24,267 nucleotides of DNA from an uncultured Spirochaetales bacterium (GCA_964433385.1 CAYSRK010000298.1:1-24267); one strand, 5' to 3'. Positions 1 through 20,387 are shown, counted from the stretch's first letter. The notes: a model not told the origin generated them from the letters alone. Made by a program: numbers and translations.

Positions 1-2
1 GG

Positions 3-353
3 TTCTACGAAGGCTGGGCTTTCAGCATCAACCGCTACACCGATGTGCCGGATGCCGCCCTGAAGGTGCTTGAGGTGATGTTCGACTTCCCGGTCCAGAA
101 GCTTTTCAACCTCTCCCAGGGGCCGCTGCAGGCGCATGTGGATGTCTATTCAGACCCGGACGTGCTGGCGAACAACCCCAACATGGATATCATCTATGAT
201 GTGGCCGTCACGGCAAAGCCGCCGCTCCCCTCACCGAACTATGTGGAAATCTCCGATATTCTCCGGCGCCAGATCCACAGCGTCCTGACCGGACAGAGCC
301 AGCCGAAGGCAGCGCTTGATCAGGCTGCGAAGGAAATCAACGCCATCAGGTAG
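3..353 (+). CDS. ABC transporter extracellular solute-binding protein (carbohydrate/CUT1 type), C-terminal part; 5'-truncated by the window
   Basis: The frame is open from position 3 (FYEGWAFSINRYTDVPDAALKVLEVM...). The C-terminus PxSPNYVEISDILRRQIHSVLTGQSQPKAALDQAAKEIN is typical of family-1 sugar-binding proteins, and two permeases follow. Confidence 0.85.
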   Translation, partial: FYEGWAFSINRYTDVPDAALKVLEVMFDFPVQKLFNLSQGPLQAHVDVYSDPDVLANNPNMDIIYDVAVTAKPPLPSPNYVEISDILRRQIHSVLTGQSQPKAALDQAAKEINAIR

Positions 354-396
354 AGGTACTACGGTATTTTTAAGCAGAACTTGCGGAATAATTGAG

Positions 397-424
397 GCAC
401 ATGCCCCCGAATCGGGGGCTGTGC
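397..424 (+). other. GC-rich stem-loop between the binding-protein and permease genes (likely mRNA stabiliser or attenuator)
   Basis: GCACA-T-GCCCCCG-AAT-CGGGGGC-TGTGC; no U-tract follows. Confidence 0.55.
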
Positions 425-478
425 TGTATACTTCTGCAGTGAAAAGAACAGGCGGACTGCAGCAGGAGGAGTACGGAC

Positions 479-1642
479 ATGCTATCTGATAATGTAGCTG
501 TGTCCCTGTTGGGGATCATTGCAGCGTTTTTTGGAATATATCTCCTTCTGGCTATGGGGATAACGATGCTCAGGCGGGCCGCAGCCCTCTCGGGCGGCAG
601 CGGGGCGCTCAAAGCGGCAGTCGTTGCTGACGGGGCGCTCTATATCCTCGCCCTTGCAGGATTTCTCATCCGTCCCCGTATCGCCTTCTATCCCGCCGCA
701 GCAGCAATAGCACTCAGTTTTATTCTTGGAGCAGCGCTGCGCAAACGCACTTCCGGCCGTACGCTCACCGAGCATGAGCTGGGAATCTTTTTTCTGCTGC
801 CCGCCTTCCTGGGCGTAATTGCCCTCTACTACTACCCGATTACCCAGACGCTCATCTACAGCCTGCATGATATGAAGTACTCGGCTGACTGGACACAGAG
901 TGCCTTCATCTGGTTCAAGAACTACGCGTACGCCTTTGAGTCGGAGAATTTCCGCAGAGCCTTCGGCTTTACCGGCTACTTCACTCTGGGGACGGTTACG
1001 CTGAGCTTTCTTCTCGGGCTGGGCATGGCGCTTACCTCCTACTGGATAAAGGGCACCTTCAGCAGCTTCGTCAAGGCAGTCATCGTTATCCCGTGGGCTA
1101 TTCCTATGATCATAACCGCCTCCATCTGGCGCTGGCTCCTCAACGCGGAAGTCGGCCCTGTCGCCCTGCTGCGGCAGTGGGGGATTATTGATCAGGTTCC
1201 CGTATTTCTCTCCGATCCGCTGCTGGCCGTCCACAGCGTCATCCTTGCAGACGCCTGGAAGTGGGCTCCTCTTGTGGCGATCTTCCTCATCGGCGCCCTG
1301 GCCACCATCCCGGAGGAGATGTTCGATGCGGCGAAGGTGGACGGAGCCGGTGCTTTTCGGAGATTCAGATCGATCACCCTTCCCATGATAGCCCCGACAA
1401 TTTTTGTTGTACTGATGTTCAGGACCATGGAAGCGCTGCGGATTTTCGATATTGTCTACGGCATGACCGGAGGCGGACCGGGGATAGCAACCGAAACGCT
1501 GAGCACCTTTTCCTACAAGTACTACTTCTCCTATTCCCGCTTCGGTACAGGATCGGCATACGCCATGGTTGTATTTGTCATCATTTTGCTGTTCAGCTTT
1601 CTGTATGTGAACAGAATGTATAAAAATCTGAGGTTCCGCTGA
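479..1642 (+). CDS. Carbohydrate ABC transporter permease (MalF/UgpA-like) with an extra hydrophobic N-terminal extension
   Basis: RBS AGGAGGAG upstream; many TM segments; EAA-like loop ALATIPEEMFDAAKVDGAGAFRRFRSITLP. Confidence 0.93.
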   Translation: MLSDNVAVSLLGIIAAFFGIYLLLAMGITMLRRAAALSGGSGALKAAVVADGALYILALAGFLIRPRIAFYPAAAAIALSFILGAALRKRTSGRTLTEHELGIFFLLPAFLGVIALYYYPITQTLIYSLHDMKYSADWTQSAFIWFKNYAYAFESENFRRAFGFTGYFTLGTVTLSFLLGLGMALTSYWIKGTFSSFVKAVIVIPWAIPMIITASIWRWLLNAEVGPVALLRQWGIIDQVPVFLSDPLLAVHSVILADAWKWAPLVAIFLIGALATIPEEMFDAAKVDGAGAFRRFRSITLPMIAPTIFVVLMFRTMEALRIFDIVYGMTGGGPGIATETLSTFSYKYYFSYSRFGTGSAYAMVVFVIILLFSFLYVNRMYKNLRFR

Positions 1643-2496
1643 TGAACAGTGCCGCTACACATCGTCTGAAAAGAAAGGCTGACAAGGTGCTCTCCCATAT
1701 TACCGGGCTGCTGATTGTTCTCTTCTGTATCGGTCCGCTGCTGTGGATACTCACCACATCCTTCAAGCCCATGGGAGCTGAATTTCAGACCCCGATTGAG
1801 CTGTTTCCCTCCAAGCCCTCACTGCAGGCCTACCGGACGGTGCTTGTGGACCTCAAGTTCTACAGCCCGATTCTCAACAGCTTTATCGTTTCCTCCGCGA
1901 TAACCGTGCTCGGATTGTTCGTTGCGGCGCTTTCTGCCTACGCGATAGCCAGACTGCGCATCAAGTACAAGATTCAGTCGCTCTTCCTGCTCCAGATAGG
2001 AGCCATGATTCCCCCGGTCGTCACGATTGCCCCGACGTTCGTGATCATCCGCTCCCTCGGCCTGCTCAGTTCGCTCCCCGGGCTCATTCTTCCCCATATT
2101 TTTTACATGACACCCATCGCAACGTGGCTTCTGGCAACCTACTTCGCTGAAATACCCTTCGAGCTTGATGATAATGCGCGCATCGACGGCTGTACGAACT
2201 TTGAGATTTTCTGGAAGATCATCCTTCCTCTCGGCGCCCCGGGACTCTTCTCAGCTGGAATATTCGCCTTTCTCGGTTCCTGGGGTGAGTTCATGCTTGC
2301 CTCTTCAATCACCATGGGGGTGAAGGGAGTTCAGACGGTTCCGGTAGCCATCCTGAACTTCTCCTTTGAACACAGGACGCAGTGGACCTGGATATCGGCG
2401 GGGATCATGCTGTCCCTAGTACCGATCCTGCTCCTGGTCATACTCTTCCAGAAAAAGGTAATCAGGGGACTGACAGCAGGCGCGGTGAAAGGCTGA
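1642..2496 (+). CDS. Carbohydrate ABC transporter permease (MalG/UgpE-like)
   Basis: TGATG stop/start overlap with the upstream permease; EAA loop IPFELDDNARIDGCTNFEIFWKIILP; C-terminal FQKKVIRGLTAGAVKG. Confidence 0.95.
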   Translation: MNSAATHRLKRKADKVLSHITGLLIVLFCIGPLLWILTTSFKPMGAEFQTPIELFPSKPSLQAYRTVLVDLKFYSPILNSFIVSSAITVLGLFVAALSAYAIARLRIKYKIQSLFLLQIGAMIPPVVTIAPTFVIIRSLGLLSSLPGLILPHIFYMTPIATWLLATYFAEIPFELDDNARIDGCTNFEIFWKIILPLGAPGLFSAGIFAFLGSWGEFMLASSITMGVKGVQTVPVAILNFSFEHRTQWTWISAGIMLSLVPILLLVILFQKKVIRGLTAGAVKG

Positions 2497-2516
2497 GGTG
2501 AAGAAACAGTATCGGG

Positions 2517-3548
2517 CTACGGCGCCGCTGCGGTGGACTTCCTGATAATAAGATCAACCGGAAACTTCTTGACCACCCGATTCTGATACTCACGCTCGAT
2601 CCTCTCAAGAATCAGTTTTCCGGCCTGCATTCCGATACTGTAGGCTGGGGGACCGATGGTAGTCAGCGGCGGGTTGAAGGATTCGCTGCCCGGCTCGTTG
2701 TTGAACCCGATAACCGAAATGTCATCAGGGACCGAGAGTCCGGCAGCGTAGGCGCTTCCGATCACTCCCATCGCCATCGTATCAGTTATCGCAAAGACTA
2801 CTGTGGGACGGGGGTTCAGGCGAAGCAGATCTTCCATGGCATGCCAGCCTCCGGCGGCAGTCCAGTCGCCCTGCCTGAAGTAATCCTGCGGCACATTGAT
2901 GGCAAGCTCGTCCAGGATTCTCCTGATCAGCTCGACCCGCATGCGGGCGTGAACTGACCGTTCATACCCGGTAACTATCCCGAAATTCCGGTGGCCGAGG
3001 TTTATGAGGTGTGAGAAGGCGGTCTTTATGCCGTGGTAGGCGTCTATGAGGAACATGTTGATATGTTCGTGGGGAATATCCCGGTCAATAACCAGCACCT
3101 CCGTGCTGTTTTTGAAGATTTCGAACGGAATGTCATGTTCGCTGCTGCCGACCGAACCGACGTAGACGATTCCGCTGACCCGCTGCCGTACAAGGGCCTT
3201 GCTGATCTCAATCTCCTCAAGCGGATCCTCCTGGGAGCTGCAGATGATGACCTCGTAGGGCGAATCCTTCATGGCGTCGTAAAAACCGCGGGTTATCCGC
3301 GCAAACGCGAGATTTGAGAAGTTCGGGACGACCATTGCAAGGAGATTGCTCTTGGCTGTCTGCAGACCCCGAGCTATCAGGTTGGGATGGTAGTTAAGCG
3401 TCTGAATCGACTCCTGAATCTTCCGGAGGGTTTTCTCTTTCACCTTTTCCGGATGGTTGATCGCCCGCGAGACGGTTGAAGCGTCCACTCCGACACTTGA
3501 TGCGATATCCTTCAGAGTGACCGGGGATGCTGCCTTTCTACTTTTCAT
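2517..3548 (-). CDS. LacI-family transcriptional regulator
   Basis: HTH VTLKDIASSVGVDASTVSRAIN, hinge YHPNLIARGL, periplasmic-binding-like effector domain ending PPLTTI...LIIRKST. Start set at the ATG at 3548 (MKSRK); the ORF-track start at 3590 is possible but less likely. Confidence 0.93.
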   Translation of the reverse strand: MKSRKAASPVTLKDIASSVGVDASTVSRAINHPEKVKEKTLRKIQESIQTLNYHPNLIARGLQTAKSNLLAMVVPNFSNLAFARITRGFYDAMKDSPYEVIICSSQEDPLEEIEISKALVRQRVSGIVYVGSVGSSEHDIPFEIFKNSTEVLVIDRDIPHEHINMFLIDAYHGIKTAFSHLINLGHRNFGIVTGYERSVHARMRVELIRRILDELAINVPQDYFRQGDWTAAGGWHAMEDLLRLNPRPTVVFAITDTMAMGVIGSAYAAGLSVPDDISVIGFNNEPGSESFNPPLTTIGPPAYSIGMQAGKLILERIEREYQNRVVKKFPVDLIIRKSTAAAP

Positions 3549-3670
3549 ACACAGCCTACAAGGAAGAAGATCGTACTGCCGCAGCCGCAAAGCGCTGCCG
3601 GTTTAAACAGGGCGGAACCCCTGCCGCTCAGAGCAGTGCGTAAGACTGCCCTGAATCGTCATAATGATCA

Positions 3671-3699
3671 ATATTACCCGCGGCGGGACTCTTGCGCAA
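3671..3699 (-). promoter_or_regulatory. Predicted sigma70 promoter of the lacI-family gene
   Basis: Minus strand TTGCGC-N17-TAATAT. Confidence 0.55.
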
Positions 3700-3714
3700 T
3701 CCTCTCTGCCGGGT

Positions 3715-4749
3715 TTACCAAATGTAATGTTCGAGCGAACGGACTTTGCAGATCAGCTTCGGAAGCCGGTCGATGGTGACAAAACCCGGGGGCGCGTTTA
3801 TGACGTCCGGGATCCGGTTGACAATCTGGGAACTCGTTCCGAGCAGCGTGGGCGGATTGTCGTTGCGCATATGGATCTCGGGAACCCCCCTGATGTACCA
3901 CTCATTGAAGTCGACCTCGCCCTCATCGTAGGCCCTGCCGGTCATAGTACCCTTGAAGAGAATACCTTCAGCTGTATCGATTTCTATAGTGATATCGAGA
4001 CCGATGACATCCCCGGGAGGAATCATGGTGCCGCGGCTGCGGCAGGGAACGGCGTGGTCTCTCGTAAGCGGCGTGACGATTTTCCGGAAGGCTTTCGGCG
4101 TCAGTCCGAGCTCGGCTATCTGGTTCTCTAGGTCCATCCGCAGAAAGTCGACCTCGTCCCCGATGGGGAACTTCTCGCCCGCATCGATCATCGCCTGGAT
4201 CTCATCCAGCTTGCGGCCGACGGCGTAGAAGCCGGCCACCATCTCTCCAAGCGCGTCGACGTTCACGCTTACCTGTCCCTCGATCGCATCTATCCTCTGC
4301 GAAGCGCCGGTCAGGTGGGTCACAATCGTAGCCCAGAAGATATCCTGCATGCCTGACCCGGTCACGGTCACCCCGTTTTCCTTGGCAATCCGGTCAAGCT
4401 TCGCGGTAACGGTGGGGGAGGCTGTCCAGGGATAGGAGGCTTCCTCTGATGTCGTTATCACATTCAGTCCTGCCTCAAGGCACTTTTTGACATGGGGATA
4501 GATGATATCCATCGATGTGGCAAGAGCCATGAGCGCGATATCGGCTCCCGTCTCCGCCAGGACGGCGTCAACATCATCCCTGATGCATACGTTGAGCTTG
4601 CGGTCAAGCCCGAGCACATCGCCTAAATCCTCGCCCACGTGGGTTATGTCTACAGCATCGGTAATGATGACTCCTTTTTCCAGCATGAACCGGGCAATAT
4701 CCTTGCCTACCGTCCCCGCTCCATATACCAGTGCCTTTACTTTCTCCAT
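3715..4749 (-). CDS. NAD(P)-dependent amine dehydrogenase (native AmDH / 2,4-diaminopentanoate dehydrogenase Ord-like family)
   Basis: N-terminal Rossmann YGAGTVG; ITTSEEASYPW with Glu102; VTVTGSGMQDIFW; C-terminal NDNPPTLLGTSSQIVNRIPDVINAPPGFVT typical of the family; RBS AAGGAG. Confidence 0.8.
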   Translation of the reverse strand: MEKVKALVYGAGTVGKDIARFMLEKGVIITDAVDITHVGEDLGDVLGLDRKLNVCIRDDVDAVLAETGADIALMALATSMDIIYPHVKKCLEAGLNVITTSEEASYPWTASPTVTAKLDRIAKENGVTVTGSGMQDIFWATIVTHLTGASQRIDAIEGQVSVNVDALGEMVAGFYAVGRKLDEIQAMIDAGEKFPIGDEVDFLRMDLENQIAELGLTPKAFRKIVTPLTRDHAVPCRSRGTMIPPGDVIGLDITIEIDTAEGILFKGTMTGRAYDEGEVDFNEWYIRGVPEIHMRNDNPPTLLGTSSQIVNRIPDVINAPPGFVTIDRLPKLICKVRSLEHYIW

Positions 4750-4773
4750 ACTGCTGCTCCTTGGTATGCAAAA

Positions 4774-4787
4774 TACAAACGATTGGA
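4774..4787. promoter_or_regulatory. LacI-type operator O1
   Basis: TACAAACGATTGGA, a pseudo-palindrome with central CG, just downstream of the predicted AmDH -10. Confidence 0.6.
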
Positions 4788-4791
4788 TTTA

Positions 4792-4820
4792 ATAGTACAC
4801 CGTTTGCACGATGATGTCAA
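4792..4820 (-). promoter_or_regulatory. Predicted sigma70 promoter of the amine dehydrogenase; its spacer and -10 overlap operator-like site O2 (4795-4808, GTACACCGTTTGCA)
   Basis: Minus strand TTGACA-N17-TACTAT, near consensus. Confidence 0.75.
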
Positions 4821-4918
4821 ACGAAAAGCGCCCCTGCGCCGCCGTCTTCATAAGGCTAATATTAAGCATTTACATGAAAAACAGTTGTCTGCAAAACAGA
4901 AGAGCATTCGCTGTTTTT

Positions 4919-4948
4919 GCCACCCTGCTCCCTGGAAAGCAGGGTGGC
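4919..4948. repeat. Perfect 11-bp inverted repeat in the divergent promoter region
   Basis: GCCACCCTGCT-CCCTGGAA-AGCAGGGTGGC. Confidence 0.7.
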
Positions 4949-4978
4949 CGGAACACGCTTTTTATGAGCGCTTTCAGT

Positions 4979-5007
4979 TTGTCAAACGAGGGGAAGTGTG
5001 GTATGAT
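4979..5007 (+). promoter_or_regulatory. Predicted sigma70 promoter of the corrinoid protein-mttB-RACo operon
   Basis: TTGTCA-N17-TATGAT with an extended -10 (TGn). Confidence 0.72.
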
Positions 5008-5020
5008 TACCTGAAAAAAA

Positions 5021-5034
5021 AGCAAACGTTTGTA
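5021..5034. promoter_or_regulatory. LacI-type operator O3
   Basis: AGCAAACGTTTGTA with a perfect core CAAACGTTTG, a few nt downstream of the predicted +1. Confidence 0.7.
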
Positions 5035-5082
5035 CAAAGCTTCACCGGTTCCGCTCTGCGGTACGGCGAAGGAGGAGAAGGA

Positions 5083-5733
5083 TTGAAGGAACAGCTGTTT
5101 GCCGAACTGGCAGAAACCGTGCATACTTTTGACAGAGAGCGGGCTGAGAAGCTCGCGTTAGAGAGTATCGCTGCGGGAATAGACCCGTTGGAGACGCTTG
5201 AGGCGCTCACAAAGGCGATACGGGAGATCGGGGACCTCTACGATTCCGGGGAGGTGTTCCTGCCCGAGCTGATAGCCGCCTCAGAGGTAACCTCGGCTGC
5301 ATCGGCCCCGCTGGAAGCGGAAATTGAGCGGTGCAACATGAAGAAGCAGAGCATGGGCCGGGTCGTCATCGGGACGGTGTTCGGCGATATCCATGACATC
5401 GGAAAGAACATGGTTGCGACGCTGCTGCGGGCATCGGGTTTTGATGTGTACGACTGCGGAACGAACGTAAAGTCCGATCTCTTCATAGAGCGCATCCGCA
5501 GGGAACAGGCCGACCTGCTGGCCCTCTCCGCCCTGCTCACCACTACTGCCGAGGAGCAGCGCAGGACCATATCCGCTCTGAAGGAGCAGGGGCTGAGGGA
5601 CACGGTCGGTATCATGGTCGGCGGCGGAGGGATTACAAAGAAGTTTGCCGACGACATCGGGTCTGACGGGTATGCGGCAACCGCCTCAGGAGCGGCAGCG
5701 CTCGCGAAAAAGCTCTTAGGCCTCGCTGACTGA
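5083..5733 (+). CDS. Corrinoid (cobalamin-binding) protein, MttC/MtbC-like
   Basis: N-terminal cap domain; GTVFGDIHDIGKNMV (DxHxxG), SALLTTT, IMVGGG. TTG start at 5083 after AGGAGGAG. The ORF-track extension to 4639 runs through the promoter region and overlaps the AmDH gene. Confidence 0.93.
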   Translation: MKEQLFAELAETVHTFDRERAEKLALESIAAGIDPLETLEALTKAIREIGDLYDSGEVFLPELIAASEVTSAASAPLEAEIERCNMKKQSMGRVVIGTVFGDIHDIGKNMVATLLRASGFDVYDCGTNVKSDLFIERIRREQADLLALSALLTTTAEEQRRTISALKEQGLRDTVGIMVGGGGITKKFADDIGSDGYAATASGAAALAKKLLGLAD

Positions 5734-5770
5734 GGTCTTTGACCGGCAACAGAAAAGAAGGAGTTACGGC

Positions 5771-7213
5771 ATGGGAAGAAGGGGAGTGGAACCGGTTATT
5801 GCCCCGGTTGAGATGCTGAGCGCCGATCAGGCGGAACAGGTGCACCGGGCAACGCTGCGGGTCCTTGAGCGGACCGGGGTGAAGATGGAGCACCCCGAGG
5901 CGCTGAAACTGCTGGGAAGGCACGGCTGCACAGTTGATGGGGAGTCCATGCTGGTGAAGTTTCCTCCGGAACTGGTCGAGGAGTGCCTGAAGCTGGTTCC
6001 CCAGCGCTACACCGTCACTGCCGCGCTTGAGGAACATGCACTGGAGTTCTCCACCGAAAGACTCTACTTTACCCATACCTCGGGCATGCAGTCGGTCGAC
6101 CTTGAGACGATGGAGCAGAAAGTTCCCGACAAGGGAGAGTATATCGAGGCCATTCGGGTCCTTGATGCGCTTGAGACAATCGATATGCTCGGCTGCTACC
6201 CCTACTTCGGGTTTGAGGGAACCGAGTCCAAAATGGAGATCCCGGCCGGGGTGGCGCTCAACCTTACCTACTGCGGAAAGCATCAGGCGGCTGCCTGTTC
6301 CAACGATTCTGAACTGTTCACCTTCCAGATGGCTGAAGCGGCCGGGCAGGAGGTTTCGGCCACAATCGGTTCTTCTCCCCCGCTTACCTGGGGGGAGAAG
6401 GCGATAGAATCGGCCTTCCGCATAGCGAAAGCCGGATATCCTCTCTCCACGGTAGACGGTGCCATGATGGGCGGGACCGGGCCGGCAACCCCCATCGGTT
6501 CGGTGGTTATGAGCAATGCGGAGCAGATGGCCATGATAGTGCTGACTCAGCTGCTCAGTCCGGGGCACCGGATGCTCATAGGCCACTTCTCCGCCCCGTT
6601 GAATATGAGGACCGGGTCCCCCGCCTTCGGTCAGATAGGAGCCTCTATCAGCAACACCCTCTTCAACCAGATGTGGCGCCGCTACCGAATTCCGTTCAGC
6701 AACGGCAGCCCGGGTTACGTCAACGCCAAGACGATCGACTACCAGGCCGGGTATGAGAAGGGGATAGCCGGCATCCTTTCCGGCCTCTCGGGAGCGAGCC
6801 TTATGCTTTTCCACTTCGGTGTCTCAAGCGAAGTCAGCGCCCATCCGCTCCAGGCGGTCCTTGATGACGATGTTGCCCGGATGATAGCGCGCTTTCTGCG
6901 TGGTGAAGAGATCAGCGAGGAGACGATTGCCGAGGAGCTGATCAACGAGGTCGGGCCTATTCCCGGTCACTACCTCAGCCGGCCGCACACGATGAAGTGG
7001 TTCAGGAGAGAACAGTGCATTCCCAAATCAGCCGACACCCTCACCTACGCCGACTGGATTGAGAAGGGTAAAAAAACGGCGAGGGACTATGCCCTTGAGC
7101 GAATGCAGGCCATTCTGGCTGCCCCGGAGAAGATCTATCTCAGTTCCGGTCAGCTTGCCGACATCGAAAAAATACTTGAGGATGCCCGCCGCTACTACAG
7201 GAACCGGGAATGA
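5771..7213 (+). CDS. mttB: Trimethylamine methyltransferase (MttB) superfamily protein, pyrrolysine-free
   Basis: N-terminal LSADQAEQVHRATLRVLERTGV; GPATPIGSVVMSNAE; NAKTIDYQAGYEK; C-terminal INEVGPIPGHYLSRPHT...W; no in-frame TAG; RBS AAGGAG. Confidence 0.88.
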   Translation: MGRRGVEPVIAPVEMLSADQAEQVHRATLRVLERTGVKMEHPEALKLLGRHGCTVDGESMLVKFPPELVEECLKLVPQRYTVTAALEEHALEFSTERLYFTHTSGMQSVDLETMEQKVPDKGEYIEAIRVLDALETIDMLGCYPYFGFEGTESKMEIPAGVALNLTYCGKHQAAACSNDSELFTFQMAEAAGQEVSATIGSSPPLTWGEKAIESAFRIAKAGYPLSTVDGAMMGGTGPATPIGSVVMSNAEQMAMIVLTQLLSPGHRMLIGHFSAPLNMRTGSPAFGQIGASISNTLFNQMWRRYRIPFSNGSPGYVNAKTIDYQAGYEKGIAGILSGLSGASLMLFHFGVSSEVSAHPLQAVLDDDVARMIARFLRGEEISEETIAEELINEVGPIPGHYLSRPHTMKWFRREQCIPKSADTLTYADWIEKGKKTARDYALERMQAILAAPEKIYLSSGQLADIEKILEDARRYYRNRE

Positions 7214-9081
7214 ATACCTCCGGCCAGCGGCAGTCCAGGCGTTTCACCGTTGTTCCCGACGGTGCAAAGACGCTCCTCACGCTGCTCAATGCCCAGGGGG
7301 CGGACATACAGGCGCCCTGCGGCGGGCTTGGAGTCTGCGGAAAGTGTATCGTCCGCATACTATCAGGCTATGCGGGTGAGCCTGAGAGCGCCGAGCGGGT
7401 ACTGCTCTCCGCACAGCAGCTCTCCCAGGGGTTCAGGCTCGCCTGCAGAACCGCGGTTCACGAACCGCTGGAGGTCGAGGTTCCCCATTCCGTGGCTGAA
7501 ACTGCGGGAAAGGGGCGCTTGAGGGTACGGGGAAGCCGGGGAAGCGGTGGCGGCTGGACGGAGAAGCGGGCTGTCCTTCTTGATGAGCCGCAGCTCGGCA
7601 GCCGGGAGTCGGAGCTTGCCCGCCTGAGACGCGTTATTCCCGGGCTTTCGGCGCAGGTCGATCCTGCAGCTGTCGCTGAACTCGCTGCGGCGCTTACAGT
7701 CGGCAGAACCGTCACCGCCGTAACGGCAGCCGGTGAAGCCGGGCAGCAGCAGCTCCTCGGGTGCGAAGCCGGCGATACCTCCGGAATCCTTCTCGGCTGT
7801 GCCGTCGATATCGGGACTACCACCGTGGCTGTCTATTTGGCTGACGTCAGGAGGCAGACTGTCATCGGTTCACTGTCGCAAGCCAATCGGCAGGGCCGCT
7901 TCGGAGCTGATGTCATCTCACGGATTGATCAGTTCAGCCGCGAAGGCGGGACTGAACTGACCAGCCTCGTCCGAACCCAGGTCCGGACCATGATCGAAAC
8001 GCTCTGCAGCCGCTGCAGCGCGGAACCTCGCCAGGTATACTCCGTAGTCTGCGTAGGAAACCCCGCCATGCTGCACCTGTTCATCGGGGCTGACCCGTCC
8101 GGAATTGCCCTGGCCCCCTTCACCCCGGTTTTTACCGAACAGCTGCTGTTTCCTGCCCGCACGTTCGGGCTCGGAGTAAGCCCTGCGGCAGCGGTCTGTC
8201 TGCTGCCGGGCGTATCAGCGTATATCGGATCTGATATCACCGCAGGCATCTTCTCAAGCGGGATGGATGAGGAGGAGGGGCCTGTCATGCTTATCGATAT
8301 CGGGACAAACGGTGAAATGGTGCTTACCCGCGGTGATGCCTACTGGACCTGCTCTACCGCCGCCGGCCCGGCTTTCGAGGGGGCTCGCATTCACTGCGGC
8401 TGCGGAGGCGAGGCGGGCGCGGGTGACTCGTTCTTCCTGGATGAGGAAGGCAACTGCTTATTCACCACAATTGGGGGAGAGGCTCCAACCTGCATCTGCG
8501 GGGCAGGCCTGGTCGATATCGCAGCCGCCCTGCTGAGGGCGGGAATAGTGGACCGGCGCGGAAAGCTTCGAGGTTTCAGCGAGTGGTCAGAGCATGCCGC
8601 CGCCCCCGATGAGTATAAGCGGCGGCTCTCATCCCGCTGGACCGAATACCAGGGCAAGGCGGCATGGACTGTAGTTCCTGAAACCGGGATCATCATTACC
8701 CAGAAGGATATCCGTGAGCTGCAGCTCGCCAAGGCAGCGATTGCCGCCGGCATCGAGATACTGCTCAAGGAGGCGGGTATAGAACCTGAATTGCTGCAGA
8801 AGCTGTACATAGCCGGCGGGCTCGGAAGCTCTATTCGCAGGGAGAGTGCCGCATCGATCGGGCTCTTTCCCGCCGGCCTGCTGGAGAGAACCGCAGCGCT
8901 CGGCAGCTCAGCCGGTTCGGGCGCGGTCTCAGCGCTCCTTGATCCCGGTTCCTTCTCCCAAAGTTACTTCCGCTGCTCCGCTGCAGCCTATATCGAACTC
9001 TCGGCCCGTCCCGATTTCTCCCGGATCTTTGCCCAAAGCATGTTCTTCCCGCCGCAGGAGCCGGAGGCTACTCCGGCATAA
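7210..9081 (+). CDS. ASKHA-type ATP-dependent corrinoid reductive activase (RACo/DUF4445) with an N-terminal [2Fe-2S] domain
   Basis: APCGGLGVCGKC...RLAC; VDIGTTTV; IDIGTNGE; STAAGPAFEG; ITQKDIRELQLAKAAI; ATGA overlap with mttB. Confidence 0.92.
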   Translation: MNTSGQRQSRRFTVVPDGAKTLLTLLNAQGADIQAPCGGLGVCGKCIVRILSGYAGEPESAERVLLSAQQLSQGFRLACRTAVHEPLEVEVPHSVAETAGKGRLRVRGSRGSGGGWTEKRAVLLDEPQLGSRESELARLRRVIPGLSAQVDPAAVAELAAALTVGRTVTAVTAAGEAGQQQLLGCEAGDTSGILLGCAVDIGTTTVAVYLADVRRQTVIGSLSQANRQGRFGADVISRIDQFSREGGTELTSLVRTQVRTMIETLCSRCSAEPRQVYSVVCVGNPAMLHLFIGADPSGIALAPFTPVFTEQLLFPARTFGLGVSPAAAVCLLPGVSAYIGSDITAGIFSSGMDEEEGPVMLIDIGTNGEMVLTRGDAYWTCSTAAGPAFEGARIHCGCGGEAGAGDSFFLDEEGNCLFTTIGGEAPTCICGAGLVDIAAALLRAGIVDRRGKLRGFSEWSEHAAAPDEYKRRLSSRWTEYQGKAAWTVVPETGIIITQKDIRELQLAKAAIAAGIEILLKEAGIEPELLQKLYIAGGLGSSIRRESAASIGLFPAGLLERTAALGSSAGSGAVSALLDPGSFSQSYFRCSAAAYIELSARPDFSRIFAQSMFFPPQEPEATPA

Positions 9082-10423
9082 CGGCGTCTATGCGCTCCTG
9101 AAGCGCCTCCCGGCTGGGAATGATGGAGGAGAAGGCGAGCTCTCCGTTGATATAGATGCTCGGCAGCTGCGTCACCCGCATCTTCTGTGCCCTGACGATA
9201 TTCTCCATCGAAGCAGAAGCCTTGTACTCCACTACATCGATACGGTCACCGTAGGTCTCCTTCGCATCCATGGCAGACTGGTACATGTAGGTGCAGGCGG
9301 CGCAGGTGACTGAATCTATGGTGAAGACCTCGATAAGCGGACGTTCAAGAGCACCGTAGTCGGGCAGGCTCACCGCAATATCCTGACTCTGCCGCTCGTA
9401 CCCGGCGATCAGGCGGCGGGTCTGCTCAGTTTGGTGAACCGCCTGTTCGCAGCCGACGCAGTTTTCCACAGGGGTATCGTAGGGCATATCGCACCCGGGG
9501 GAGATGATCAGATTCCGATGGTCTACGGCGTCGAGCTCATCAATGACGACTTTCATATTGTCCTGCTGGCTGCCGAAGAGCATGACTGAGGCGAGCGGGA
9601 TATTGCCGCCGAGGACGACGTTATAGCGGTCGGTTACCGCTTTGGTCGCGGCGAAATCGAGGTTTTCATCCACGGAAATACCGTCAGGCTCGGTTCTGCA
9701 CATGACTTCTATGTTTTTCGTCGCATCCCCGCAGACGAAGAAGCTGGAAAACCGTCCGAGTTCCCGGATACGGGAGTGGAGCTTCAGGTAGGGTTCGTGC
9801 ATGAACTGGGTGAAGTGCTTCGGCGATATCTGGGAAATAAGCGGATCAACCGGGGCAAGAATGTCGGCGCCGGCTTCAGCGTAGTACTCTGCCATAGCGA
9901 CGGCAATCTCTGTGGTCCAGCTGAGCAGCCGGGTCACATAATCGGGGTCCTTGATGAAATCCATGAAGATGTTCGTTCCCCGCAGGTGGGAGGCAAGGGT
10001 AAAGGGACCGCAGAAGAGACCGTAGATGGCCGTCGTGTCCCCGACTGCCTCGCTGAGCGCTTTTGCAGCAGCAAGGGCAAGCGGAATGCGCCCGGCCTCC
10101 CGGCTTGGGATACTGTCCGGAATATCCTTGCCGGAGGAGAGCGGATGGGTGGTCACTGTGGCAGGGGAGTCCTTTGCCCACATGAGATCACAGCCGAGAG
10201 CCTCTGCTTCGATCTGCAGATCAAACATGACCGTCTGTCCGTCAGGCCTGTAAAGCTGGTGCGCCTTCAGCAGCGCCCGGTTCAGGGTCTCAAGTTTTGT
10301 GTAGACCTCCTGCGCATCGGCGCCGATCAGTTTTCCGGCATGCACGCCGGCAAACGGTACCCAGGGAACTGCATCGGCCTGTTCATGTCTGAATACCGCA
10401 TATATACGTTCCTTTCCTGTCAT
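9068..10423 (-). CDS. MtaA/CmuA (uroporphyrinogen decarboxylase fold) methyltransferase-family protein fused to a C-terminal thioredoxin-like domain
   Basis: UroD-fold motifs FDLQIEAEALG, GPFTLASHLRG, FFVCG, GGNIP, ISPGCDMPYDTPVEN. The last ~100 aa read EVFTIDSVTCAAC...VTQLPSIYING, a thioredoxin/glutaredoxin pattern with CxxC and cis-Pro. RBS AAGGAG. Confidence 0.85.
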   Translation of the reverse strand: MTGKERIYAVFRHEQADAVPWVPFAGVHAGKLIGADAQEVYTKLETLNRALLKAHQLYRPDGQTVMFDLQIEAEALGCDLMWAKDSPATVTTHPLSSGKDIPDSIPSREAGRIPLALAAAKALSEAVGDTTAIYGLFCGPFTLASHLRGTNIFMDFIKDPDYVTRLLSWTTEIAVAMAEYYAEAGADILAPVDPLISQISPKHFTQFMHEPYLKLHSRIRELGRFSSFFVCGDATKNIEVMCRTEPDGISVDENLDFAATKAVTDRYNVVLGGNIPLASVMLFGSQQDNMKVVIDELDAVDHRNLIISPGCDMPYDTPVENCVGCEQAVHQTEQTRRLIAGYERQSQDIAVSLPDYGALERPLIEVFTIDSVTCAACTYMYQSAMDAKETYGDRIDVVEYKASASMENIVRAQKMRVTQLPSIYINGELAFSSIIPSREALQERIDAVMPE

Positions 10424-10479
10424 CTTCTGCTCCTTGTACTGCTGTTCCTACAGGCAGTGTACGGCATCTGGGGGAAAAA

Positions 10480-10493
10480 TGCAAGCGTTTGTA
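10480..10493. promoter_or_regulatory. LacI-type operator O4, upstream of the MtaA-like gene
   Basis: TGCAAGCGTTTGTA, matching O1 and O3. Confidence 0.65.
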
Positions 10494-10555
10494 TTAATGT
10501 TCAGCAAAATAGTCAGATTAGTATTATCGGGGTGCAGTAATGAATTGTTTCTTAC

Positions 10556-10569
10556 ATCAATCGATTGTA
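10556..10569. promoter_or_regulatory. LacI-type operator-like site O5
   Basis: ATCAATCGATTGTA with a perfect core CAATCGATTG. Confidence 0.5.
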
Positions 10570-10570
10570 A

Positions 10571-11122
10571 TTATACGGACTGCGGCGGCTGAGGGGTGAG
10601 CAGTTTTTCAAAGAGTCCTGATATGACTTCAGTTACTGCCTCCTGTGAAGGGTCGGTACGGAATCCTCCCGCCTCCCGGTAGGCCCGGTCGGGAGTGAGC
10701 CCGCCTTTGATCGCGTTGACCTGGCGAGTGAACGCCTGATCCTCCCCGAGAATGTGGGTAATCAGCCAGCTTGATAGGAATGCGAGTACGTCGACCATGC
10801 CGTTTCCTTGACCGCTGCGCAGAGAGTGGAAGCAGATGTCGATTTTCCTGATGAAACTGAGGTGGGCAGCCTTATGCCGGGAGGCTGACTGCACGGCGAT
10901 ATCGAGAAGATCCATCCACTCCTCTTCGGTTCTGAAGTGGGTATCGGCAAACTCTGTGAGCCGCTCCCGCAGCTTCTCCGTCTGAGAAGCGGAGGAACTG
11001 CTGCCGGATGCAGCAAGGCCTGCTGCATCATTGAGGATCTCTATGAGGCTCCGGTGCTGCGCATCAACTAAGGCTATCCCTGTTTCCAGAACAGGATTCC
11101 AGCTGATAATCTCTTTAGTCAT
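10571..11122 (-). CDS. Bacteriohemerythrin (stand-alone)
   Basis: W...ETGIALVDAQH; THFRTEE (HxxxE); HKAAH (HxxxH); WLITHILGED (HxxxxD). All di-iron ligands are present. 8-bp overlap with the kinase stop. Confidence 0.92.
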   Translation of the reverse strand: MTKEIISWNPVLETGIALVDAQHRSLIEILNDAAGLAASGSSSSASQTEKLRERLTEFADTHFRTEEEWMDLLDIAVQSASRHKAAHLSFIRKIDICFHSLRSGQGNGMVDVLAFLSSWLITHILGEDQAFTRQVNAIKGGLTPDRAYREAGGFRTDPSQEAVTEVISGLFEKLLTPQPPQSV

Positions 11123-14100
11123 GACTCTCGTACTCCCCTGAGGATTTCCGTATCAGATTCTGCACAAGATCAACCGCCTTCTGATATTCATACCGGCTCA
11201 GCGCCCTGCCCAATGAGGAGGCGGCGCTGCCGAAGAGTGCGCTGAACAGGGTGCTGTTTTCTTCAAAAACCGCATTGGAGGAGGTGTCGTTTTTTTCCAG
11301 CAGCGCCACGAAGCGGCTGAGCAGCGGCTGGTGCTCCTCTATCAGGTGCGGGTCACCCTGAGCGGCAGGGGTAGCCGGCTGCTCGAGCGGGGGAGGCAGT
11401 ATCGGCGCCAGGGAGGCGACCATCCGGTTGAAATCAGCGATGAAGCCAAAGACAAGCGGAGAGAGCTCCTCCGCCTCGGCACCGCCAGCGATACTGTTCT
11501 CAAGCACCCCCGCAGCTTCCGAAAGCACACGCATGCCCAGGGTCCCGGTGAGCGATCTCAGGTTGTGCACAAACCCGCGCAGGGAGGGGTAATCTCCCTC
11601 CCTGAAAGAGGCCTCCATCAGTTCCCCGTCTTTTTCGTGTTTCCTGAAGAACTGCTCGACCATTTTGCGGTAAAGCTGGGCATCTACCATCAGATACTTG
11701 AGGCCGCAGACGGTATCTATACCGGGAATCTGCTGCAGCCGGGAGAGAAGTTCCCCGGCAGGCTCAGGGTTCGCCGCGGTCGGTTCTGGGTCAGATGCCG
11801 CTTCAGCAGTCTTTTCCTTCAGGGGATCGGCAGCAGGAAGCCAGGCAAGAAGCCGTTCGTAGAGAACCTCCGGTTCCACTGGTTTGCTGATGTGATCGTT
11901 AAGACCGGCATGTATGCTCTCCTGCATATCTTCGGAGAATGCCTGAGCTGTCATGGCAAGAATGGGAACCGAATCCCAGCCCGGAAGGGTGCGGATGATC
12001 TTTGTCGCTTCATACCCGTTTATTCCCGGCATCCTGATATCCATGAGCACCAGGTCGTAGCGCTTAGCCCTTGCCAGTTCAACGGCCTCACGTCCGTTGG
12101 ATGCCACATCGGGCCGTATGCCGGCACCCCGCAGAAGCTGGCAGGCAAGTTCCTGGTTGATCTCATTGTCTTCGACCAAGAGCACTGACACGTTCCCGGC
12201 GGCTGCTTTCAGCCGCTCCGCCATGCGGTGTTCCCGACCGTCCTTATCCTGCTCCTCCGCGCTCTGCTCAGGGAGCACTCCCTCACGGCGTCGGGTTTCA
12301 ACGGAGCGTTCGGGCGGCAGGGGAAGGGTGAAAGGAATTTCCAGGATAAACTCCGAACCGGCGCCCTCCACGCTCTCGACGGTTATGGATCCGCCCATTA
12401 TCTCCGCCAGTCGCCTGCTGATGGCAAGCCCGAGTCCGGTTCCCCCGTAGCGGCGCGAGGCGGAGCTGTCACCCTGCTCGAAGGCCTGAAACAGGGTCTT
12501 AACGATATCAGGGGAAATGCCGATGCCCGTATCCTGTACACTGAACTGCAGCAGGATACGCTCCTTATCCTGTGAGAGAACCCGGCCTTTCACCCGTACA
12601 CTGCCGGCATCGGTGAATTTCACAGCATTTGAGACGAGGTTGAGCAGTATCTGGGAGAACCTTCGCCCGTCTCCGACAACCGCTTTCGGGATGCTGAGCG
12701 TGCTGGCCGAGAGATCGAGACCCTTCAGGTGGGCCTGTTCGGAAACGATTTCCAGGACCCGGCTGACTGTTTCGGCGGGATTGAAGCTCTCCTCAATCAG
12801 GGTCATCTTGTCGGCGTCGATTTTTGAGACATCAAGGATGTCATTGATGACTTTCAGGAGGGGAGCAGCGGAGCTGAGCAGCTTCTTGAGCTTCTCCCCC
12901 TGGCTCACAGGCAGCGGATCCTGCTGCATCAGGTAGGCGTATCCGAGAACAGCGTTCATCGGGGTACGGATCTCATGGCTCATGTTGGCCAGGAAGGTGC
13001 TTTTCGCCCTGTTCGCAGACTCGGCCTTCTCCCTTGCCCGTTCGAGCTCCCTCGTACGTGAGGCAACTATCTCCTCAAGGTGGAGCCGGTACTCATCAAG
13101 CGTGCGGGTGGTTTCCATGACGTCAGTTATGTCATGAATGATCCCCAGGACAGCCTCAGGAGTCCCTTCATCGTCAAACTGCGACTCGCCCTGCAGTTCC
13201 GCCCAGCGGGTATGCTCTCCCTGGAAAAAACGGCTGGTTATCTTGAACGGGACCCCGCCGAGAGCTCCCTCCCAAGCCCGGACGAGAGCGGGCAGGTCTT
13301 CCGGGTGGATGTAACGCGGGAAGAGGTCGGCATGGATTTCCCGCTGCCGCGGGATGCGGAATATATTCCGCGCTTCTTCAGATATGAAAAGCGTATCTTC
13401 CTTGATATCGTAGTACCAGTGTCCCGTGTGAGAAATTGCCTGCGCCCGCTCGAGAAACTTCTCATTGCGGCGCAGCGCTTCAACAGCGGTCTGCCGCTCG
13501 CGGTTGAGCAGCACTATGCTGATCTGGTCGGCAAACTGTCCGGCGAAGGTCTTCTCATCATCCTTCCACACTCTCTGGGATTCGAGGGTCGAGAGGATGA
13601 ACACCCCCCTCAGCCTGCCGCCGAAGGCTATCGCTGAGAAGAGCACCGAAGAGATTCCCTGGGAGAGTAAAAAATGGTTCTTGAAGGTTTCGTTCATGCC
13701 GGTGAAGCGGGGGATGTCTGTAACGGCGATCGTCCTGTTCTCGATGAGCGAGTCGAAATTGATGGAGAAAGTATCAAGCTTGACATCGGGAAGGCTTCTG
13801 TGCAGGGCATTCCGCGGTTCATAGATGTCGCTGCAGACGGCGCTGCGATTGTCTTCGCTGAACATCCAGATCGAAATCCGGTCAACGGCAAAGACCTCGG
13901 CGAGCATCTCGGTCAGCTTCGGGGAGATGGTGCCGCCTGGCCTGTTTTCACGTTCGGCCTCAGCAACCGCGGCAAGTATTTTCGGATAGGTCTTAAGCCT
14001 TCTGAGGTAGGCTGCCTGCTCCCTCTCCTGCCGCTCCGTTCTGGTGATATCACGCCAGGTGGCGTGTATCAGGAGGTTTCCGTGATGCATGATCGGCTGG

Positions 14101-15548: not shown

Positions 15549-15612
15549 GCACTGTTCTCCCTATCAGAAAATCCGGCAGCCGGAGCGGTCAGGCAGCCTT
15601 GGATACTCTGCA

Positions 15613-15641
15613 ATTATGACAAAAATTCCCTGTGCATGCAA
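15613..15641 (-). promoter_or_regulatory. Predicted promoter of the kinase-hemerythrin operon
   Basis: Minus strand TTGCAT-N17-CATAAT with an extended -10 (TGn). Confidence 0.6.
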
Positions 15642-15689
15642 TGATATCCTTGTCCGCTTCCTGGCAGCCGTGGCGGCCAAGTCGGGTAC

Positions 15690-15718
15690 TGGAATGAAAT
15701 TCTCCGCCTTGGTATGAT
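15690..15718 (+). promoter_or_regulatory. Predicted extended -10 promoter of the adenosyltransferase
   Basis: TGGAAT-N17-TATGAT preceded by TGn; the -35 is weak. Confidence 0.4.
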
Positions 15719-15753
15719 GGCTGCATCCTACTGAGAGAATGCGGGGAGAGCGT

Positions 15754-16308: not shown

Positions 16309-16320
16309 GCGTGGTAGAAT
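16292..16320 (+). promoter_or_regulatory. Predicted deoC promoter, overlapping the end of the adenosyltransferase gene
   Basis: TTGGCG-N17-TAGAAT with an extended -10 (TGn). Confidence 0.55.
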
Positions 16321-16366
16321 AGATACGGGCTTCAACGGCTGAGCGCTGGAACCAGGGAGGAAGAAG

Positions 16367-19032: not shown

Positions 19033-19145
19033 GCTCTGCTCCTGCGCACGACATCCGGCTTTACTCAGAGTAAGCATGCCGAAGGAGAGCAGAAAAATCA
19101 ATCGCGGCTGCAGCCGGACCGGTGGGGATTTTCACGCGCCCTTGA

Positions 19146-19174: not shown

Positions 19175-19182
19175 GATCTATT

Positions 19183-20334: not shown

Positions 20335-20387
20335 CGGCAGCAGGCTGTGATTATCCCCACGGAGAACGTTCGAAAGGAGGATGTACT

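Follow-up and report, generated by a model that had tools for sequence, protein, structure and literature searches.

What compound is broken down by a set of genes that brings together a sugar-type importer, a LacI regulator, a corrinoid methyltransferase and an amine dehydrogenase, and how far does the set reach? We considered these questions for the window, that is, the whole stretch of 24,267 nucleotides analysed here, which is one entire contig (C298) of the fragmented MAG of an uncultured Spirochaetales bacterium. The nine genes listed in the first-pass annotation are all present as intact open frames of the families it named, and they are given below in order along the contig together with the predicted operators.

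3..353, plus strand: C-terminal 116 aa of a CUT1 (SBP_bac_1) binding protein, with 83% identity to residues 337-451 of the complete protein from the related locus L002
479..1642, plus strand: CUT1 ABC permease 1, MalF/UgpA-like, 387 aa (PF00528; NCBIfam GlcT/UgpA/MalF matches)
1642..2496, plus strand: CUT1 ABC permease 2, MalG/UgpE-like (PF00528, BPD_transp_1; GlcU/UgpE/MalG matches)
2517..3590, minus strand: LacI-family repressor (LacI HTH and Peripla_BP_3), downstream of the AmDH gene and co-transcribed with it
3715..4749, minus strand: predicted NAD(P)-dependent amine dehydrogenase of the native-AmDH family (AmDH; PF19328, DAP_DH_C/Ord-like)
4774..4787, no strand: predicted LacI-type operator of the AmDH promoter, TACAAACGATTGGA, 25 bp upstream of the AmDH start
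5021..5034, no strand: predicted LacI-type operator upstream of the corrinoid protein-MttB-RACo operon, AGCAAACGTTTGTA
5083..5733, plus strand: cognate corrinoid protein, B12-binding_2 and B12-binding (TIGR02370, 184 bits)
5771..7213, plus strand: pyrrolysine-free MttB-superfamily methyltransferase (MT1; PF06253, 236 bits)
7210..9081, plus strand: RACo-type reductive activator of corrinoid proteins (Fer2, RACo_middle and RACo_C_ter)
9068..10423, minus strand: URO-D/MtaA-like methyltransferase fused to a thioredoxin-like CxxC domain (UroD-Trx; PF01208 and Thioredoxin_3)
10480..10493, no strand: predicted LacI-type operator upstream of the UroD-Trx gene, TGCAAGCGTTTGTA, an exact match to the consensus
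10556..10569, no strand: second operator-like site in the same intergenic region, ATCAATCGATTGTA, with 2 mismatches and weaker than the other sites

An SBP_bac_1 binding protein with two MalF/MalG-type permeases (permease 1 has orthologues of 387 aa in L002, L004 and L006) places the importer in the CUT1 class (TC 3.A.1.1), and the best solved relatives of the full binding-protein orthologue are MalE3, TMBP and SmoF. No ATPase gene for this importer was found in the spirochaete cluster, whereas the Chloroflexota versions have a MalK-type ATPase. The corrinoid protein starts with TTG at 5083 behind an AGGAGG site, not at 4639, and carries the DxHxxG cobalamin-binding motif as 'GDIHDIG'; the adjoining MttB is one open frame of 480 aa without in-frame UAG that covers positions 25-482 of the PF06253 profile; and RACo matches PF00111, PF17651 and PF14574, each above cut-off (2Fe-2S ferredoxin, middle and ASKHA ATPase C-domain). 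Exact contigs from an RNA library fell, over positions 1-20000 of the window, solely on the binding protein, AmDH (two) and MttB genes, which makes four contigs in all, each of them short; the library was small and may include DNA.

Beyond the left end of the window the gene cluster continues on two further contigs of this MAG, C5 and C255. Their genes encode an MtmB homologue free of pyrrolysine, another corrinoid protein, a methyl-THF transferase that binds pterin and an ABC importer of the Bmp type, together with a XylB-like kinase, an amidohydrolase of cog0402, two Zn-ADHs, an AKR, an FTR homologue and another UroD. We place the contigs end to end on the strength of two split genes, namely MtmB (C255 ends with residues 367-445, C5 starts with residues 1-338) and the binding protein (C5 ends with residues 11-326, at 2197-3117, and C298 starts with residues 337-451), and the resulting order agrees with L002 and L006. 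The two MtmB pieces are 91% (residues 1-338) and 85% (residues 367-445) identical to the L002 protein (PF05369), in which a Met aligns with the pyrrolysine of 1L2Q; such homologues form two subtypes, 40% identical, one in Spirochaetota and Bacillota and the other in Chloroflexota. The pathway outlined by the first-pass annotation consists of real genes, but the system is about three times larger and includes another MT1, another corrinoid protein and a methyltransferase to THF; the pterin-binding enzyme that was thought absent is encoded on C255. Nucleoside-salvage genes lie near the cluster, in the window as well as in L004.

Sites resembling TRCAANCGNTTGYA occur in the window at 4774, 5021, 10480 and 10556, all of them intergenic, and the whole cluster has eight predicted operators at six promoters and none in coding sequence. 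In the genome of 2.7 Mb, where 0.47 exact copies would be expected, there are four, three of them in the cluster. Moreover, the operator positions are kept in four related loci, L002, L004, L006 and L011: the site at 4774 has equivalents in L002 (8883), L004 (15043), L006 (8979) and L011, that at 5021 in L002 (9077), L006 (9204) and L011 (7466), and that at 10480 in L002 (14850), L004 (14821) and L006 (16154). Because operators stand at every promoter and are conserved in these four loci, the prediction that the cluster genes form one LacI regulon is supported at the sequence level, as the first-pass annotation had proposed from a shared operator. In the Chloroflexota and Bacillota clusters a GntR/UTRA regulator replaces LacI.

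Comparison of gene neighbourhoods indicated which genes travel together, and the conservation of neighbouring genes that the first-pass annotation had set as a check is borne out. In Spirochaetota and Chloroflexota, MttB orthologues with identities of 49% or more are in every case next to orthologous CUT1 genes and a corrinoid protein, none below about 47% identity is beside a CUT1 importer, and MttB and CUT1 are linked in 21 of 22 genome-loci. Over these 22, the binding protein was counted in 21, the kinase, amidohydrolase, Zn-ADH and AKR in 12 each, the FTR and MtmB-like genes in 11 each and the aldolase in nine. In Chloroflexota (L008, L014), MttB, AmDH, importer and catabolic genes share one co-directional operon. 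The system is not confined to spirochaetes: Chloroflexota and Bacillota have it as well, and among Spirochaetota it is rare. The UroD-thioredoxin fusion is found in the spirochaete versions alone.

AmDH has MsmeAmDH (6IAQ, E 4e-74) as its best solved relative, and the structural features of native AmDHs, a DapB-like N-domain, a DAP_DH_C domain and the catalytic Glu, are all found in it, the Glu lying in 'TSEEASYPW', which aligns with 'SEEMLYPW' (Msme) and 'GEEAFYPW' (Cfus). Assignment as the 2,4-diaminopentanoate dehydrogenase Ord was rejected, with a score of 131 bits against the NCBIfam equivalog cut-off of 400 and no ornithine-fermentation genes in the cluster. Since the AmDH orthogroup is tight (at least 68% identity over three phyla, with no further relative above 50%) and each of the 11 members whose context could be read belongs to this cluster type, the sequences support AmDH as a dedicated member of the pathway. 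The expected tie between AmDH and MttB held less well: AmDH is found most constantly not with MttB but with a module of kinase, aldolase, amidohydrolase, ADH and FTR, and clusters in Bacillota contain AmDH but no MttB in the 20 kb read. In other lineages an FAD oxidase and a CCG iron-sulfur protein fill the slot of AmDH between aldolase and amidohydrolase; this pair resembles glycolate or lactate dehydrogenases and may oxidise a hydroxyl rather than an amine, and therefore a common operon slot need not mean a common reaction. A survey of this family from 2024 found no clear metabolic role for the one AmDH group that it examined by genomic context (PMC11164908), and the present cluster gives the first genomic hint of the cellular function of "native amine dehydrogenases".

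Two further identities were tried and rejected. MttB resembles the glycine betaine methyltransferase MtgB (E 3e-42, about 30% identity), in which R312 and H348 bind the carboxylate and F356 makes a cation-pi contact (PMC13080624), but a HMMER alignment to 2QNE, from which the numbering offset of 16 was also taken, puts Ser, Phe and Val at these positions. UroD-Trx does not qualify as an MtaA/MtbA methylcobamide:CoM methyltransferase, because Phe takes the place of the Zn-ligand His ('FFVCG' against 'LHICG' in 4AY7); both Zn-ligand Cys are kept, and the 'FFVCG' pattern and the thioredoxin CAAC are invariant in four orthologues.

Taken together, our best explanation, to which as a whole we give a probability of roughly 0.55, is that the window holds the right-hand third of a LacI regulon of about 33 kb and 25 genes, split by the assembly over C255, C5 and C298, and that this regulon serves the anaerobic breakdown of a methylated nitrogen compound bearing a sugar or polyol. 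On homology and gene context, the compound would enter by the CUT1 importer, to which the Bmp-type ABC importer (C255) may add; the two pyrrolysine-free MT1s, MttB of the window and the MtmB homologue of C5/C255, would each demethylate a positively charged N-methyl centre, with their own Co(I) corrinoid protein as methyl acceptor; the pterin-binding MT2 (C255) would pass methyl groups to tetrahydrofolate; and RACo would re-reduce corrinoid protein inactivated as Co(II). The methyl groups would probably be oxidised to formate, since the genome encodes MTHFR and formyl-THF synthetase (FTHFS) and acetyl-CoA synthase (ACS) was not detected in it; the genome is 79% complete, and a missing ACS is therefore no proof of absence. 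AmDH would then deaminate the unmasked amine oxidatively to a carbonyl, and the resulting aldose or ketose would go to AKR, Zn-ADH and the XylB-like kinase and, in most relatives, through a DhnA-type aldolase to triose phosphate. Most likely, then, this spirochaete shares with distant anaerobes a gene set that imports a methylated sugar-like nitrogen compound, demethylates it with vitamin-B12 enzymes and deaminates it. We found no paper describing this system, in line with the earlier remark that no characterised system has this combination.

The oxidoreductive pentose route employs enzymes of the AKR, Zn-ADH and FGGY kinase types, and the AKR, two Zn-ADHs, XylB-like kinase and DhnA aldolase fit the sugar- or polyol-like amine that the first-pass annotation had in mind. 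An N-methylated amino-polyol fits best as substrate class, for example the mono-, di- or trimethyl-aminopentanetetrol head groups of methanogen lipids; archaeal lipids contain N-mono-, di- and trimethyl-aminopentanetetrol and an O-methyl variant (PMC6423904, PMC2686161). Against lipid head groups, no phosphodiesterase that would release them is present. A plain amino sugar or amino-polyol gives no reason for the cog0402 amidohydrolase or the FTR homologue, nor for Bmp or ECF importers, which have relatives that bind purines, nucleosides or vitamins; these genes point to an N-heterocyclic part or a second substrate. Known quaternary-amine methyltransferase systems take off one methyl group. To our knowledge, quaternary amines are the sole substrates of known pyrrolysine-free MT1s, and therefore removal of the last methyl groups by these enzymes is chemically unproven. 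On balance, the overall interpretation of the first-pass annotation is partly supported.

The main rival to an amino-polyol is a methylated nucleoside-like compound, that is, a methylated purine-type nucleoside or an aminated N-heterocycle with a sugar or polyol chain, such as m7G, m1A (cationic) or m6,6A from RNA turnover. It would be taken up by the Bmp, ECF or CUT1 importers, the MT1s and UroDs would take off N- and O-methyls, cog0402 would deaminate the ring and the sugar would be broken down by way of kinase and aldolase. The amidohydrolase speaks for this, being closest to MTA/SAH (its best solved relative), 5'-deoxyadenosine and 8-oxoguanine deaminases, as do the Bmp binding protein, whose solved relatives take purines, nucleosides or atrazine, the nearby salvage genes, and the ECF importer that the Bacillota versions use, with an S component of faint QueT likeness. 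ECF importers are a type known for vitamins and nucleobase precursors. However, the conserved set lacks a nucleoside hydrolase or phosphorylase and a pathway-dedicated AmDH would have no role; ribose is not usually broken down by AKR, Zn-ADH and a XylB-like kinase, the CUT1 binding protein is similar to binders of disaccharides and glycosides, and the FTR homologue is again left over. We therefore regard a nucleoside-like substrate as possible but unlikely.

Less probable still is that the substrate is the deacylated head group of a choline- or betaine-type lipid (glycerophosphocholine, for instance, or glyceryl-trimethylhomoserine) that enters by a UgpB/SmoF-like CUT1 system. MttB and the MtmB homologue would demethylate the choline or betaine, AmDH would act on the ethanolamine- or amino-acid-like remainder and the kinase on glycerol. 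SmoF, among the binding-protein relatives, binds deacylated sulfolipid, the permeases are UgpA/E-like, and the aldehyde:ferredoxin oxidoreductase and GlcD/GlcF-like oxidase carried by some clusters would suit C2 products; moreover, MthB, a characterised MttB member, uses phosphocholine and yields the once-demethylated amine (PMC12155760), and MtqB uses choline and tetramethylammonium (PMC13044021). Against this, no glycerophosphodiesterase or ether-cleaving enzyme is in the conserved gene set, the kinase is XylB-like (344 bits, cut-off 380) rather than GlpK-like (145 bits), the MtgB carboxylate ligands are not retained in MttB, and the amidohydrolase, FTR homologue and Bmp and ECF importers are not accounted for. 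Least probable of all is a mosaic of unrelated operons (sugar importer, amine dehydrogenase, quaternary-amine methyltransferase) in which AmDH does not act on the MttB product, which would agree with the AmDH clusters that have no MttB within 10 kb and with the spirochaete locus L013, with MttB and importer and no AmDH nearby, but not with one operator at all six promoters in positions kept in four relatives, the strict MttB-CUT1 linkage or the single operon of L008 and L014.

Read as a pathway for a methylated amino-polyol-like compound, the regulon resembles several known systems in part. With the native amine dehydrogenases MsmeAmDH (6IAQ), CfusAmDH (6IAU) and AmDH4, and with Ord, the window AmDH has the DapB-like Rossmann domain, DAP_DH_C domain and catalytic Glu in common, but it belongs to a close-knit subfamily of its own, linked to a cluster of corrinoid and sugar-catabolic genes. 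UroD-Trx has the URO-D fold in common with MtaA/MtbA (4AY7) and with MtaA-like proteins from mlp gene clusters (PMC10418091) and keeps two of the three Zn ligands, both of them Cys; it differs from MtaA/MtbA in the C-terminal thioredoxin-like CxxC domain fused to it. MtqB/MtqC of Methanococcoides methylutens Q3c, the sole pyrrolysine-free MtmB homologue with shown function, acts on quaternary amines (PMC13044021); MtqB and the spirochaete protein are both MtmB-family members without pyrrolysine (Met in the L002 homologue), each beside its own corrinoid protein, whereas the spirochaete system is in a bacterial host, would pass the methyl to THF and not coenzyme M, and has its gene inside a sugar-type catabolic regulon. 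Finally, MtgB/C/A (glycine betaine) and MtpB, MtcB, MtyB and MthB/C/A/K of Eubacterium limosum likewise use a pyrrolysine-free MttB-superfamily MT1. Like the spirochaete system, they combine it with a corrinoid protein of its own that has the DxHxxG motif, an MT2 that binds pterin and methylates THF, and a reductive activator dependent on ATP. In contrast to these quaternary-amine:THF systems, in which importer and regulator are betaine-type, those of the spirochaete system are sugar-type (CUT1, LacI or GntR), and it is coupled to an MtmB-family second MT1, an amine dehydrogenase and a sugar-type carbon pathway.

All genes named in the first-pass annotation were present in the window as intact frames and belonged to the families it had assigned to them, and C298 is a complete contig of a fragmented MAG (413 contigs, 79% complete).

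3-353: C-terminal piece of a CUT1 (sugar-type ABC importer) binding protein
479-2496: two MalF/G-type permeases
2517-3590, minus strand: LacI regulator
3715-4749, minus strand: nat-AmDH/Ord-family dehydrogenase (AmDH), closest to MsmeAmDH (6IAQ, E 4e-74), catalytic Glu kept
5083, a TTG, the real start: DxHxxG corrinoid protein
5771-7213: pyrrolysine-free MttB homologue
7210-9081: RACo
9068-10423, minus strand: URO-D/MtaA-like protein fused to a thioredoxin-like CxxC domain (UroD-Trx)

The cluster is three times what the window shows. Loci with close MttB orthologues (72-78% identity) contain, upstream of the binding protein, a divergent operon with genes for a corrinoid protein, an MtmB-family protein and a pterin-binding methyltransferase; in this genome these genes lie on two other contigs, C5 and C255. 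The binding protein gene is split, the remainder after the C5 part opening C298, and the MtmB homologue carries Met at the pyrrolysine position.

C5 (3.1 kb): N-terminal 338 residues of the MtmB homologue, second corrinoid protein, binding protein residues 11-326
C255, end: C-terminus of the MtmB homologue
C255, downstream of MtmB: Bmp-type ABC importer and pterin-binding methyltransferase to THF (MT2)
C255, opposite-strand operon converging on the importer and MT2: Zn-ADH, FGGY kinase, cog0402 amidohydrolase, second Zn-ADH, FTR homologue, AKR, second UroD (332 aa)

We found a candidate operator, the 14-bp palindrome TRCAANCGNTTGYA, before these genes, giving a regulon of eight operators, six promoters and about 25 genes in total.

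Window 4774: upstream of the AmDH gene
Window 5021: upstream of the corrinoid protein-MttB-RACo operon
Window 10480 and 10556: upstream of UroD-Trx
C255 5289 and 5431: upstream of the Zn-ADH/kinase/amidohydrolase operon
C5 1812: upstream of the operon of corrinoid protein 2 and MtmB
C5 2087: upstream of the importer

Exact matches to TRCAANCGNTTGYA numbered four in the 2.7-Mb genome against 0.47 expected, three of them in this gene set, and four related spirochaete loci (L002, L004, L006, L011) had operators at equivalent intergenic positions. The sites were absent from the Chloroflexota versions, which have a GntR/UTRA regulator instead. A genome-wide search for more regulon members yielded one further exact site (C300:2187, L098). 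It separates a metallo-beta-lactamase-fold gene from that of an AraC regulator, with a CUT1 binding-protein paralogue (39% identity) and a GH38 alpha-mannosidase alongside, and is probably a match by chance or cross-talk. Exact matches to window positions 1-20000 in one small metatranscriptome were confined to four short contigs, covering the binding protein, AmDH (two) and MttB, which weakly supports transcription of the cluster in the environment.

The remainder of the window holds several other genes. At 10571-15548, the gene for a 183-aa stand-alone bacteriohemerythrin overlaps the end of that for a 1477-aa hybrid histidine kinase, which has several PAS domains as well as GAF, HisKA, a receiver and Hpt; this pair directly adjoins the oxygen-sensitive corrinoid genes, has no upstream LacI-type operator and is not kept beside the cluster in relatives. 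Inside the kinase gene, a 40-bp stretch (12953-12995) showed four- to five-fold higher contig depth and many loose ends in two metagenomes, likely reflecting a conserved kinase motif common to many organisms and not a repeat within this genome. At 15739-17032, 5 kb from the corrinoid system, are a PduO-type cobalamin adenosyltransferase and a DeoC-family aldolase; tblastn gave no match between this DeoC and the DhnA-type aldolase of Chloroflexota and Bacillota, so they are not orthologues. The last part (17026-24267) encodes a 691-aa amine-oxidase/CrtI-like flavoprotein whose C-terminal domain is a 4Fe-4S domain of the dihydropyrimidine-dehydrogenase type. After it come a thymidine-kinase-like protein, a pyrimidine-nucleoside phosphorylase, which adjoins the MttB operon in L004 too, a Bmp-type binding protein and a lysine-2,3-aminomutase-like radical SAM protein. 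In addition, a second, distant MttB-family gene (120 bits) lies elsewhere in the genome on a 2.8-kb contig (G000:C320:58-1353, L099).

To examine conservation, 80 loci with an MttB alignment were taken from species-representative genomes and their neighbours were scored by tblastn. Every locus with MttB at least 49% identical, all from Spirochaetaceae/Sediminispirochaeta and Anaerolineae/Caldilineales, had the orthologous CUT1 binding protein (44-86% identity), permeases and corrinoid protein, and none of those at 47% or below had the orthologous importer set, so that the link between MttB and importer is strict. The first-pass annotation had read these genes as one amine pathway in one regulon, and we consider this partly supported: the gene families and the MttB-CUT1 linkage stood, while the identity of the substrate is a proposal only.

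When all neighbours were clustered over 22 genome-loci, the binding protein was present in 21, the kinase, amidohydrolase, Zn-ADH and AKR in 12 each, FTR and the MtmB-like protein in 11 each, the DhnA-type aldolase in nine, GntR in seven, LacI, AmDH and RACo in six each, and UroD-Trx in five; an FAD oxidase occurred in seven, accompanied in six by a CCG protein. The operon order is fixed: kinase, aldolase, a variable slot, amidohydrolase, Zn-ADH, FTR. The slot is filled by AmDH in L008, L014, L017 and L104, and by the FAD oxidase with a CCG iron-sulfur protein in L018-L022, L025, L026 and 'Ca. Formimonas warabiya'. In the last of these, the cultured strain DCMF, the core cluster spans CP017634.1:3,227,685-3,248,554. 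The Bacillota versions (L101-L103) had the core module, with no MttB anywhere in the region examined; therefore MttB and the CUT1 importer are an add-on to a more widespread core. AmDH was carried by L102 and L103, the MtmB-like protein also by L102, and presence of AmDH did not track MtmB subtype. L101 and L102 use an ECF importer, whose S component matched nothing in Pfam or NCBIfam and, in the Atlas, only an unnamed ECF-S cluster with a faint QueT likeness.

Seventeen protein clusters of AmDH relatives had at least 68% identity, and beyond them identity dropped to at most 50%. The AmDH is dedicated to the pathway: all 11 members with readable context lie in this type of gene cluster. Its sequence in the spirochaete, in a Chloroflexota member and in a member of the Clostridia is 68% identical, and no subfamily member was found in 400 other sampled Spirochaetota genomes; being rare in the phylum and highly similar across phyla, the gene seems to have spread horizontally. 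Native amine dehydrogenases are valued biocatalysts. Our literature searches on their natural role found nothing, and in a 2024 survey genomic context gave no clear metabolic function for the AmDH group examined (PMC11164908).

We propose that the compound would be imported and that the two substrate:corrinoid methyltransferases (MT1s) would each move methyl groups onto their own corrinoid protein, from which the pterin-binding MT2 would pass them to THF, with RACo repairing inactivated corrinoid protein. Oxidation to formate would be the probable fate of the methyl groups, since the 79% complete genome has MTHFR and FTHFS and no ACS was found in it. The AmDH would turn the freed amine into a carbonyl, and the carbon would be handled by the AKR, the Zn-ADHs and the XylB-like kinase (344 bits against the XylB cut-off of 380), followed in most relatives by the DhnA-type aldolase. 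The oxidoreductive pentose route uses enzymes of these types (AKR, Zn-ADH and an FGGY kinase), and this set fits an amino-pentitol or similar compound. In Chloroflexota (L024:17366-18676; equivalents in L008, L014, L016) a single protein joins the pterin-binding methyltransferase to a glycine-cleavage H (lipoyl carrier) domain; 'Ca. Formimonas warabiya' (L101:15830-20799) has Pterin_bind, FAD oxidase, CCG, GcvH and UroD as separate genes. These arrangements and the spirochaete UroD-thioredoxin fusion hint at dithiol chemistry during methyl transfer. Moreover, tungsten-type aldehyde:ferredoxin oxidoreductase genes end several versions of the cluster (L012:16281-17510; operon ends of L018 and L019), which points to oxidation of an aldehyde product to an acid.

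As for the substrate, archaeal lipids contain N-mono-, di- and trimethyl-aminopentanetetrol head groups and an O-methyl variant (PMC6423904, PMC2686161), and methylated aminopentanetetrols are a candidate that would engage every methyltransferase type present. An amino-pentitol leaves the amidohydrolase, the FTR homologue and the Bmp and ECF importers without explanation. The main rival, a methylated nucleoside-like compound, draws on these same leftovers, since the nearest solved relative of the amidohydrolase is MTA/SAH deaminase, relatives of both importers bind purines, nucleosides or vitamins, and the FTR homologue also keeps it alive; however, the conserved set has no nucleosidase and the AmDH is given nothing to do. 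An MTA/5'-deoxynucleoside 'DHAP-shunt' covers the deaminase, kinase, aldolase, ADH and UroD, but neither the AmDH nor the two N-methyltransferase homologues, and was rejected. Scavenging of methanofuran or methanopterin, considered because of FTR, was dropped as those cofactors have no N-methyl group and the aldolase is DhnA/ADH-synthase-like, which we take not to be the furan-synthase type. Ornithine fermentation by an Ord enzyme was dismissed for the AmDH (131 bits against a cut-off of 400, wrong context).

Returning to the amino-pentitol, the most novel version of this pathway, to which we give a chance of only about one in eight, is a horizontally spread anaerobic route in which the MttB- and MtmB-type pyrrolysine-free MT1s would act in series on one sugar-like amine, putatively the methylated aminopentanetetrol head groups of methanogen lipids, and the nat-AmDH would release the nitrogen. 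The bacterial FTR homologue and neighbouring Zn-ADH would act on an N-formyl intermediate, so that demethylation would be partly oxidative and energy conserved via formyl-THF. If true, this would be the first physiological role for nat-AmDHs and for FTR outside H4MPT metabolism, and the first case in which a single organism fully demethylates and deaminates a quaternary amine in the absence of oxygen.

By linking two different MT1 families, a pair of corrinoid proteins and a THF methyltransferase with an amine dehydrogenase and sugar-type carbon breakdown, the cluster suggests that a methylated amine is used completely without oxygen for carbon, nitrogen and C1 units, and offers a testable physiological context for native amine dehydrogenases, pyrrolysine-free MtmB homologues and bacterial FTR homologues. 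Since it occurs in MAGs labelled sediment, aquatic and fen and in a cultured dichloromethane fermenter, it may divert methylated compounds from methylotrophic methanogenesis.

To our knowledge, characterised MttB-superfamily systems take a single methyl off a betaine or choline-type compound. Literature searches for the present gene combination gave no paper, in agreement with the first-pass view that it is undescribed, and the main text of the 'Ca. Formimonas warabiya' proteomics paper does not mention that organism's copy of the core cluster. Glycine betaine was rejected as substrate, since identity to MtgB is low and the MtgB carboxylate ligands are not kept, and the MttB homologue is therefore not MtgB. 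Likewise, UroD-Trx is not a canonical MtaA because the zinc-ligand His is missing, with Phe at that position in the UroD domain; both Cys are kept, and its CAAC motif does not vary in four orthologues. The only characterised relative of the MtmB-family MT1 is MtqB (PMC13044021). Overall, the cluster would work like the MtgB/MthB-type quaternary-amine:THF methyltransferase systems, with more parts: besides a second MT1, from the MtmB family, it has an amine dehydrogenase, transport and regulation of the sugar type, and a full carbon pathway.
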